Virus genome (UHGV): UHGV-0127965
Reading direction: 5' to 3' (one strand)
DNA: 37,909 bases
DNA from: a virus
Shown here: positions 16,248 through 37,859 of the stretch, one piece after another
How positions within the stretch are numbered: position 1 is the first letter of the stretch
How the letters are laid out: each line of letters starts with the position of its first letter
Translations under genes and position numbers: made by a program
The notes under the pieces: generated by a model
The model's database searches: none
The model's input: the letters and a program-made list of their open reading frames with translations, nothing else
What the model was told of the DNA's origin: nothing

Positions 16248-16322
16248 GGGTCAGTCGTATAAAGGTCATTACGGAAGGCTGTTAACCTTCTTATCGTGGT
16301 TCGAGTCCACGCTGTCCCGCCA
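16248..16322 (+). tRNA. tRNA-Asn (anticodon GUU)-like gene
   Basis: Hand-folded cloverleaf: acceptor GGGTCAG/CTGTCCC (6 of 7 pairs), U8, D-loop with GG, anticodon stem GAAGG/CCTTC with loop CTGTTAA, T-arm CGTGG-TTCGAGT-CCACG, discriminator G, encoded CCA. Confidence 0.55.
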
Positions 16323-33928: not shown

Positions 33929-34246
33929 CTATTTTTTCTCAGAGCTCATATTGTAATAGGTGGTATAAATAGAGATTGATTTCTGACATGCTTCAAGAAA
34001 TTGCTGCGGAGTCATCCCAAGCCTTGCTTGCTCTGTAGTAAGGAATCTCTGTAAGAATTCATTCCCACCCGGCATGTTTGTAGATTCTTGGAATATTGCC
34101 ATTTGTTTGATTGCACCACACATACCAGCCATTTTCGAAGCTATCATGAGGCCTTGTATTTCATCAAAACTGCTATCGTCTGATTTTGTTTCTGCGTTAG
34201 CTATGCTCGAGAGACACAGGAGCAATAGGATAGCGATACGTTTCAT
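33929..34246 (-). CDS. Secreted periplasmic protein, 105 aa
   Basis: Signal peptide MKRIAILLLLCLSSIANA; its ATG overlaps the TGA of the Mnt-like gene (ATGA coupling); AT-rich. Confidence 0.5.
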   Translation of the reverse strand: MKRIAILLLLCLSSIANAETKSDDSSFDEIQGLMIASKMAGMCGAIKQMAIFQESTNMPGGNEFLQRFLTTEQARLGMTPQQFLEACQKSISIYTTYYNMSSEKK

Positions 34247-35841: not shown

Positions 35842-37611
35842 ATGACAGACATTACAGCCAATGTGATCGTATCGATGCCTTCGCAACTCTTCACTATGGC
35901 GCGTTCTTTTAAAGCCGTAGCCAATGGCAAAATTTATATCGGTAAAATTGACACTGACCCGGTAAATCCTGAAAACCAGATTCAGGTTTATGTGGAAAAT
36001 GAAGACGGCTCTCACATTCCCGTTTCGCAACCAATCATCATTAACGCTGCTGGTTACCCGGTATATAACGGACAGATTGCCAAATTCGTAACTGTGCAAG
36101 GCCATTCTATGGCTGTATACGATGCGTATGGAGCGCAGCAATTCTATTTTCCTAATGTGCTGAAGTATGACCCTGATCAAGCATACCCAAGATTGATTGA
36201 TGATCTGAAAAACATAGATGGAATATCTATGATAGGTGGTGGTTTATACAATGATATTAGGGAATACGCTGGTAACGGAATGGAAATAAATTGTACTGGT
36301 GGAATAGAATTTAATGATGGTTGCAGTGGTTTATTTATTCTTGATGAACGCGATAATAAAAGTGTAGACGATGGCGGAACTGTATTAGTTGATCGCTTAG
36401 GGCGTCGATGGAAACGTCAATTTGACGGAACCGCTCAACGTAGATGGTTTGGTCTGCCTGACAATGAAGGATTAACATCTGGGTGGGATTCATATGCACC
36501 ACCTCAAGAAAAGTCGCTAAAAGATGCGGTGCAAGACATAGCTGTAACTCCTGATGACGTATGTGTTAAGCATCGTGCCATAAAAGCATTCCGCAAATCA
36601 GTAGGAATTAAGGATAGTGCTGTAGCTGGAGCATTTATAGTTGGTGAGTTCCCAGAAGATTCAGATGTTGAACCCTCTGCTTCTGTTACAGGGTTTGAAT
36701 CATATGATGACATAGGAAAGTATCCAGGCAGGGATTCTGTCGCCTTATTCGCTCAGGCTGAATCTGCGCTCCCCATTGAGTTTTCTGATGGGGTGTTTAC
36801 CACGTCATCTGTAACGTCGCCCACTGTTCTAAGTGTTATCGGTAAAGTGCAGCCGGGAATGATTCTTGATGTTAACTTTGGAACCGGAGGATGGGTAGGC
36901 ACTGTCATAACGGCGGTAAACACTTCAACCGGAGAGTTAGCAATAAGTGGCTGGAGAAAAATTGACGGGACATCTTCTGCGGCAACAACGCCAGCGAATA
37001 GCACCCCGGCAGTAATAAACAGGCATAACAATTTATGGGCAGCTAACTTTAATGCCTTAACTACCCAAAATGGGGGCGCCAATCAAGCCATCGGTATTGA
37101 AACGGGGTTAAGTCTACTGAAAACAGGTACCGGCACCGGCTCAAAAGCATACTACGCGGTTAACCTTAGCAGTGGTGTTGGTGAAGACCCTCAGTATGGA
37201 TTTATGAATGGTGGAAAATTCCAGAAGATATTTTTTGCCCAACTTGCAACAGACTGTTCTTTCGAAAGCACCGCATTGGCTAGCACAACGGCTAAACATT
37301 GTAACTTCCACTCAACAGATGGTACGTCACTTTTCCGTGTCGGCTACACTGGATTGGAGGTGCAAGCTCTAGCAATTGAGTATATGACGTCAACGGGAAC
37401 TGTTAGTGAGGCTTCGGCTATTACTATAGCGACAGCGGCTGGCATTAATATCAACCTTGATGTCGCGTCACGTTATCCAGGAAGGTTGCGGAAAGTTAAA
37501 AACGCGTCAGGTGGTGCTATAACTGTTAACGGCGGAGTCGCATTGACGGACGGTATGTACGCCGAATTTATCAGCGACGGCTCCTCATGGGTAACGCTGT
37601 TTACTAAATGA
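35842..37611 (+). CDS. Tailspike: P22 gp9-like N-terminal head-binding domain fused to a different receptor-binding domain
   Basis: First 115 aa or so ([11 protein letters not shown]...[30 protein letters not shown]...[15 protein letters not shown]...LKYDPDQ) match the P22 tailspike N-domain; the remaining 470 aa do not and begin in an AT-rich stretch. Confidence 0.8.
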
Positions 37612-37616
37612 TAAAA

Positions 37617-37643
37617 GTTGACGCATATATAATATGCGTCAAC
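37617..37643. terminator. Perfect 27-bp palindrome, likely bidirectional terminator
   Basis: GTTGACGCATAT-ATA-ATATGCGTCAAC between the converging tailspike and the 68-aa gene; a U-tract follows only in the minus-strand direction. Confidence 0.5.
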
Positions 37644-37652
37644 AACTAAATA

Positions 37653-37859
37653 TTATCTTATCTCATTACCGTCGCCATCAATAAACTCAATGGCTGGGAA
37701 AGCTCTGTTATCAATAACAGTAATGTTGCATTTATGGCATATATATGCGTATTCAACTCCATTCGCATTTAGTAGAGTTTTTTCGCGAAACATCTCTAAA
37801 CCACAGTCGCAAAAAAGACGGCGATAAATAACTTTTACATCGCATTCTTTAACTTTCAT
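37653..37859 (-). CDS. Hypothetical Cys-rich (zinc-ribbon-like) protein, 68 aa
   Basis: AGGAG RBS; CDC...CHKC cysteine pairs; convergent with the tailspike. Confidence 0.5.
   Translation of the reverse strand: MKVKECDVKVIYRRLFCDCGLEMFREKTLLNANGVEYAYICHKCNITVIDNRAFPAIEFIDGDGNEIR

Follow-up and report, generated by a model that had tools for sequence, protein, structure and literature searches.

A mosaic tailspike in a P22-like temperate Escherichia coli phage joins a gp9-type anchor to a putative depolymerase module related to Solidus gp83

Introduction

In phages P22, Sf6, and HK620, the PF09008 head-binding domain attaches the tailspike trimer to the tail hub, and swapping of the receptor-binding domain is the main way in which phages of this kind change their host surface specificity. 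P22 gp9, Sf6 gp14, HK620 gp9, and the CUS-3 endosialidase carry the same head-binding domain, and their genes share a position between ant and int as well as a KYDPDQ hinge that serves as a recombination boundary and is annotated "boundary sequence" in CUS-3. The exchange of tailspike receptor-binding domains across genera of E. coli phages, involving serogroup-specific domains, has been documented (Pas et al. 2023, PMC10408124), and for lytic E. coli phages it has been suggested that a conserved terminator-like motif downstream of these domains is a hotspot of recombination (PMC10408124).

Here, we describe a tailspike gene in the virus genome UHGV-0127965, a stretch of 37,909 nucleotides that was analyzed as a whole and that we call the window. 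The gene has the position, the KYDPDQ hinge, and the head-binding domain of the P22-like tailspikes (87 to 95% identical in DNA to that of the representatives from E. coli and Shigella phages), but its receptor-binding part has no detectable similarity to their endorhamnosidase, endo-N-acetylglucosaminidase, and endosialidase modules. As in the exchanges of PMC10408124, the same receptor-binding domain occurs behind different anchors and a terminator-like element lies just 3' of the gene. The conserved flanking motifs of that study are reported for lytic genera and not for Lederbergviruses; neither O154 nor the C-terminal module that we term module B is listed there, and the block exchanged here, unlike those cases, also carries a small open reading frame (ORF).

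Results

The window represents the genome of a temperate E. coli phage of the P22-like kind. Its initial 25 kb resemble E. coli P22-like phages such as CurroJimenez_Bas106 and IME10, with ∼97% identity over at least half of their length. A close relative is found as an integrated prophage adjoining tRNA-Arg/yfdC in E. coli strains 0H15 to 0H26, where the gene order is ejection proteins, arc/mnt, ant, tailspike, small ORF, and intS. Since the 0H26 assembly holds both the prophage integrated in the chromosome and a complete circular copy of 39,448 bp, this relative appears to be active, which suggests that it excises spontaneously or is induced. The circular copy was deposited as "plasmid unnamed 4" (NZ_CP081786.1), and 0H24 and 0H25 show the same pairing of prophage and circular copy. 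The window itself is a mosaic relative of the 0H26 phage, with several nonmatching blocks in between. ARAGORN detected a single tRNA in the window, a tRNA-Asn (GTT; positions 16248 to 16322, plus strand), and in the related 0H26 phage a tRNA-Asn and a tRNA-Thr follow the antiterminator Q gene. A 105-aa protein with a signal-peptide-like N terminus is encoded on the minus strand of the immI region (33929 to 34246), upstream of arc/mnt; it matches phrog_19844, a family of unknown function, from end to end.

The tailspike ORF (35842 to 37611, plus strand) is intact and encodes 589 aa, also the length found in most related E. coli prophage clusters; its homologue in strain 0H26 is annotated "phage head-binding domain-containing protein." The gene is rare: among 5,426 complete E. 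coli genomes, only 7 carry it, and these belong to two lineages. Such rarity would fit a decaying prophage remnant in which the gene no longer has a function, but the reading frame is intact and conserved at 93 to 100% over ∼20 clusters, the assemblies of 0H24 and 0H26 contain excised circular phage copies, and the same module is kept in contigs of lytic-type phages (see below), so we give hardly any credence to this explanation.

We then analyzed the domains of the protein from its N terminus. Residues 1 to 113 (35842 to 36180, plus strand) form a head-binding (virion anchor) domain of the P22 gp9 type, which ends in the KYDPDQ linker (aa 108 to 113; positions 36163 to 36180). The Pfam profile Head_binding (PF09008) matched aa 1 to 113 over profile positions 1 to 113 of 113 (E value of 1.2e-66), the DNA of the anchor is ∼95% identical to that of E. 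coli P22-like phages, and HK620-type N termini in the PDB are also matched. The alignment to the solved full-length P22 tailspike (8tvr_A, 2xc1_A) stops at aa 114 and that to the solved Sf6 gp14 tailspike (7sg7_A) covers aa 1 to 123, with nothing significant against solved full-length tailspikes beyond these residues. The conservation with P22 gp9 thus does not run the length of the protein, and the preliminary description of this DNA was right in recognizing a P22 gp9-like N-terminal domain followed by a part unrelated to the P22 endorhamnosidase.

The same boundary was found at the DNA level. In a megablast search of 50,697 phage records, 28 P22-like phages (N7, CUS-3, HK620, Sf6, epsilon34, and others) matched at 87 to 95% identity, all of them within the anchor, with ends at nucleotides 335 to 343 of the ORF (36176 to 36184), and no record covered more than 19% of the tailspike gene. 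The comparison with Sf6, HK620, and CUS-3 that had been proposed from the sequence therefore gave a uniform answer, similarity to all three ending right after KYDPDQ. The breakpoint had been placed correctly, but its coordinate needs a small revision, as position 36180 still belongs to the Q113 codon, being its final base, and the new part begins in frame at 36181. The AT-rich stretch noted after the linker is real, with a GC content of 0.33 at positions 36200 to 36349 and of 0.35 over positions 36181 to 36305, versus 0.47 for the whole window. Past aa 113, a Pfam-A release that lacks PF27114 gave no match at an E value of ≤1, and the tailspike has no Pfam match of the PhageP22-tail or pectate-lyase type. 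The best PHROG match, phrog_8280 ("colanic acid degradation"), is due to the anchor (aa 1 to 133), and we rejected it as a functional clue.

The anchor is followed by a neck, module A (aa 114 to 204; 36181 to 36453, plus strand), the first ∼125 nucleotides of which make up the AT-rich stretch (GC of 0.35) and which ends in RRWKR...WFG. It corresponds to PF27114 ("Phage_tail_beta"), a label taken from a precomputed Pfam match on a 100%-identical protein. The neck contains DG..IG, RWKR, and WFG motifs and has the expected residue in 15 of the 15 invariant columns of an alignment of 27 diverse copies, in which identity per column is 55% and RWKR and WFG are invariant. It is common to hundreds of tailspikes: when 1.84 billion representatives were searched exhaustively, 1,024 matched at an E value of ≤0.001, and most of the best 150 of them were confined to the ∼90-aa neck stretch. 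The PF27114 neck normally precedes beta-helix depolymerases. In agreement, our neck profile matched the region before the helix in solved depolymerases, namely, 5W5P, an Acinetobacter phage tail fiber protein (E value of 9e-18), 9K4A, the S2-4 protein of Klebsiella phage K64-1 (E value of 8e-11), and the K2 tailspikes 8IQ5 and 8IQ9, all of which have module A, including RWKR and WFG, in common with our protein. In these depolymerases, WFG is followed by xxGDGxTDD, where the right-handed beta-helix starts, whereas in our tailspike it is followed by module B. The sequence of our tailspike, together with that of one further protein (P0038), leaves its relatives directly after W202-F-G204, which reveals a second module junction within the protein.

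Module B comprises aa 205 to 589 (36454 to 37608, plus strand). Single-sequence searches with the C-terminal part retrieved no Pfam-A, NCBIfam, or PHROG family, and a Pfam scan of 24 members of the module B family gave stray subdomain matches only. Module B was present in only a few dozen representatives (at 50% identity) among the 150 matches listed, and a second search with the family profile, of the word-indexed type, contributed hardly any further sequences. A profile built from the 24 sequences matched exactly one PDB sequence, 24qj_A (E value of 3.3e-73; profile positions 27 to 391 versus chain residues 96 to 479). The entry, released on 2026-03-25, is the "tailspike depolymerase (Solidus_gp83)" of Acinetobacter phage Solidus, and its title is the source of the name depolymerase for the module B family. 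Judged by this profile match, module B is homologous to 24QJ over its full length, at 15 to 22% identity in structure-based alignments to a predicted model of our protein, and we annotate it as a Solidus gp83-like putative depolymerase or receptor-binding module. The domain after KYDPDQ, which could not be recognized in the preliminary description, is thereby placed as a PF27114 neck plus a module homologous to Solidus gp83.

Solidus gp83 serves an Acinetobacter phage behind another anchor, whereas our tailspike has a P22-type anchor and belongs to an E. coli phage; the neck profile did not detect a PF27114 neck in 24QJ. A tblastn search with the 24QJ sequence in a 2025 phage collection did not retrieve phage Solidus itself; the relatives that it did retrieve, from phages of Klebsiella, Vibrio, Pantoea, and Escherichia, did not exceed 42% identity. 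Literature searches on 24QJ, PF27114, Solidus, and O154 tailspikes returned nothing relevant. By Pfam, our tailspike lacks a C-terminal Peptidase_S74 domain (an intramolecular chaperone). Such a domain was called in three relatives (P0042, P0046, and P0194) that have just the core of module B in common with our tailspike, and in the group P0040 to P0046 the C-terminal beta-sandwich described below is replaced by a longer C-terminal extension. Since these relatives retain the core and swap the C-terminal domain, module B is itself modular. In these distant relatives (P0040 to P0046 and P0194), the core is kept to about aa 470 in the numbering of our protein, and the long extension carries an SDER.K motif.

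Two AlphaFold (AF2) runs, with alignments of 21 and 24 sequences, gave mean pLDDT values of 58.8 and 66.8. As the conserved core was poorly modeled, we assign neither a fold nor an active-site geometry to it. Two parts were predicted with confidence, a small inserted beta-barrel domain (aa ∼315 to 395; 36784 to 37026, plus strand; pLDDT of ∼90) and a C-terminal beta-sandwich domain (aa ∼505 to 589; 37354 to 37608, plus strand; pLDDT of ∼87 to 95) with the motif KN.S.G..TV.G...Y.EF.SDGS.W..L, which aligns to residues ∼400 to 479 of 24QJ. The whole model had matches at the subdomain level to the StcE beta-sandwich and to V/A-ATPase and HerA chains, and a fold search in BFVD returned unnamed phage proteins only. 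A 95%-identical variant from an E. coli prophage (P0005) is identical to our protein over aa 114 to 320, and the differences concentrate in the beta-barrel and the C-terminal domain; these two domains could be the specificity-determining surfaces.

We then evaluated residue conservation over 44 family members filtered at 80% identity, 24QJ included. D258, Y294, R297, D298, D343, W371, W399, N402, N404, and E420 are 86 to 100% conserved; W371, P384, N402, and E420 are invariant, D298 is 98% conserved, and no Ser or His is among the residues conserved family-wide. The span that holds the family-conserved polar residues (36613 to 37101, plus strand) is the candidate substrate and catalytic site. 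A carboxylate pair ringed by Arg, Tyr, Asn, and Trp is expected for a carbohydrate-active site, and the conservation pattern points to D298 (codon at 36733 to 36735, plus strand) and E420 (codon at 37099 to 37101, plus strand), with R297, Y294, N402, N404, W371, and W399 around them, as the best candidates for the active site.

This pattern bears on what module B may do. A binding-only adhesin, which would recognize a surface glycan or protein without cleaving it, would explain why Pfam-A, NCBIfam, and PHROGs hold no catalytic family signature for the module, and the confidently predicted beta-barrel and beta-sandwich are of kinds often used for binding. Nevertheless, invariant or near-invariant D298 and E420 surrounded by Arg, Tyr, Asn, and Trp, across members that are only 24 to 37% identical to our protein, are more typical of an active site. 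In addition, the characterized P22-like tailspikes are enzymes, and 24QJ, the sole characterized relative, was deposited as a depolymerase; we regard an adhesin as unlikely. The title of 24QJ also argues against an enzyme that modifies the polysaccharide and leaves the chain uncleaved, a deacetylase or esterase like G7C gp63.1 or the Moo19-type tailspikes. Esterase tailspikes are reported in E. coli podophages (PMC11654681), but Pfam scans of our protein and of 24 family members gave no match to SGNH or any other esterase family, and the family lacks the conserved Ser or His; such an activity appears very improbable.

Downstream of the tailspike gene, a hairpin with a near-perfect 12-bp stem and T-runs (37617 to 37643), terminator-like in character, separates it from a convergent ORF (37653 to 37859, minus strand). 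The encoded Cys-rich protein of 68 aa has Cys at positions 6, 17, 19, 41, and 44, in a CxC...CxxC pattern (C17xC19...C41xxC44). It has only 6 related clusters in 5.8 billion proteins and is without match in PHROGs or in the phage GenBank collection. In 3 of the 3 other contigs carrying the ORF that were inspected, it lies convergent and immediately 3' of a module B tailspike (L004, 7836 to 8042; L008, 3755 to 3961; L009, 5001 to 5204). A block of 91% DNA identity shared with the 48-kb phage contig L004 spans the tailspike stop codon, the hairpin, and the entire ORF; the SU10-like contigs lack the ORF. The 68-aa ORF may be functionally tied to the tailspike or may simply lie within the usual crossover interval.

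We then looked into the occurrence of the module in other phages. Attached to other anchors, the same module, with 86 to 89% amino acid identity over the C-terminal 476 aa, is found in four further phage backbones: an SU10-like podophage contig of 72.6 kb with SU10 portal and adaptor, the 48-kb contig L004, which is siphophage-like and encodes a tape-measure protein, a 58-kb phage, and a 45-kb phage with a DNA polymerase A. Some of these proteins have a PF18668 (Tail_spike_N) anchor and others have no recognized N-terminal family, while more distant relatives (35 to 61% identical) have PF03906 (T7 tail-fiber N terminus) or PF18454 (Mtd_N) anchors. Hence, the domain exchange suggested in the preliminary description is supported by a P22-like anchor joined to a downstream part that is 88 to 91% identical in DNA to tailspike genes of unrelated backbones on metagenomic contigs. 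Identity to the SU10-like contig (88.5%) begins at position 36306 and that to the 48-kb phage (91.2%) at position 36366, so the AT-rich ∼125 to 185 nucleotides after the hinge have another history. The gene consists of at least three segments of different ancestry, with AT-rich positions 36181 to 36365 lying outside these matches. Toward the 3' end, other P22-like phages do not match again until the int stop codon, ∼60 bp past the end of the window, and the phage-specific segment therefore extends from 36181 to the window end.

That the acquired part confers a surface receptor different from that of P22, as the preliminary description concluded, is a sound inference. To narrow down the receptor, we compared the O-antigen loci of the lysogens. 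The cluster of strain 0H26 contains rfbBDAC, wecB, and wzx/wzy annotated "O154 family." Among complete genomes, the gene is otherwise confined to the lineage of CAVP773, a blood isolate (L006, 3505001 to 3555000), whose tailspike segment is 95.5% identical in DNA and whose O cluster differs from that of 0H26. In this cluster, an IS3 is inserted behind a truncated glycosyltransferase gene, and wzzB is interrupted by an internal stop; CAVP773 may therefore be rough or have an altered O-antigen chain length. With two lineages among 5,426 genomes, O-type and tailspike cannot be correlated, and the O-type of a lysogen does not fix the receptor; as the two lineages have two different clusters, we rejected the lysogen O-antigen loci as proof of the receptor. 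For this variant alone, serogroup O154 is a candidate receptor, albeit a doubtful one. The related 0H26 prophage contains no seroconversion genes of the gtr or oac type between tailspike and int.

Discussion

The locus probably encodes a functional mosaic tailspike with a glycan-directed module, in a temperate E. coli phage of the P22-like (Lederbergvirus) type. We propose that aa 1 to 113 fix the tailspike trimer on the tail hub, as the corresponding domains of P22, Sf6, and HK620 do, and that recombination right after KYDPDQ exchanged the ancestral receptor-binding part for a cassette that reaches past the end of the gene. This cassette would consist of the PF27114 neck (aa 114 to 204), the Solidus gp83-like module (aa 205 to 589), the hairpin terminator, and the convergent 68-aa ORF.

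In our model, the new module would recognize a surface polysaccharide of the Wzy type (O-antigen or capsule) on E. coli cells of one particular surface type and would most likely depolymerize it, thereby bringing the virion to the outer membrane. For actual cleavage of the polysaccharide by module B, we put the chances slightly above even. A bolder version holds that module B is a structurally and mechanistically new class of depolymerase, without a beta-helix and with a catalytic arrangement around D298 and E420, and that the 68-aa ORF encodes a dedicated partner, for example one that aids folding or assembly or that acts as a regulator; we consider this combination quite improbable.

The swap event itself is ordinary and of textbook kind, but the acquired module is of a rare and uncurated kind that is also found in unrelated E. 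coli phages. It represents, in E. coli, a depolymerase-like family for which Pfam-A, PHROGs, and NCBIfam offer no curated profile and of which there is only one structure, as yet unpublished, and the precise module limits together with the candidate active-site residues can be used for mutagenesis. The module moves between temperate P22-like and several lytic-type backbones, along with a tiny ORF. If its receptor is confirmed, O154 being one candidate, the module could be used for serogroup detection or for engineering host range.
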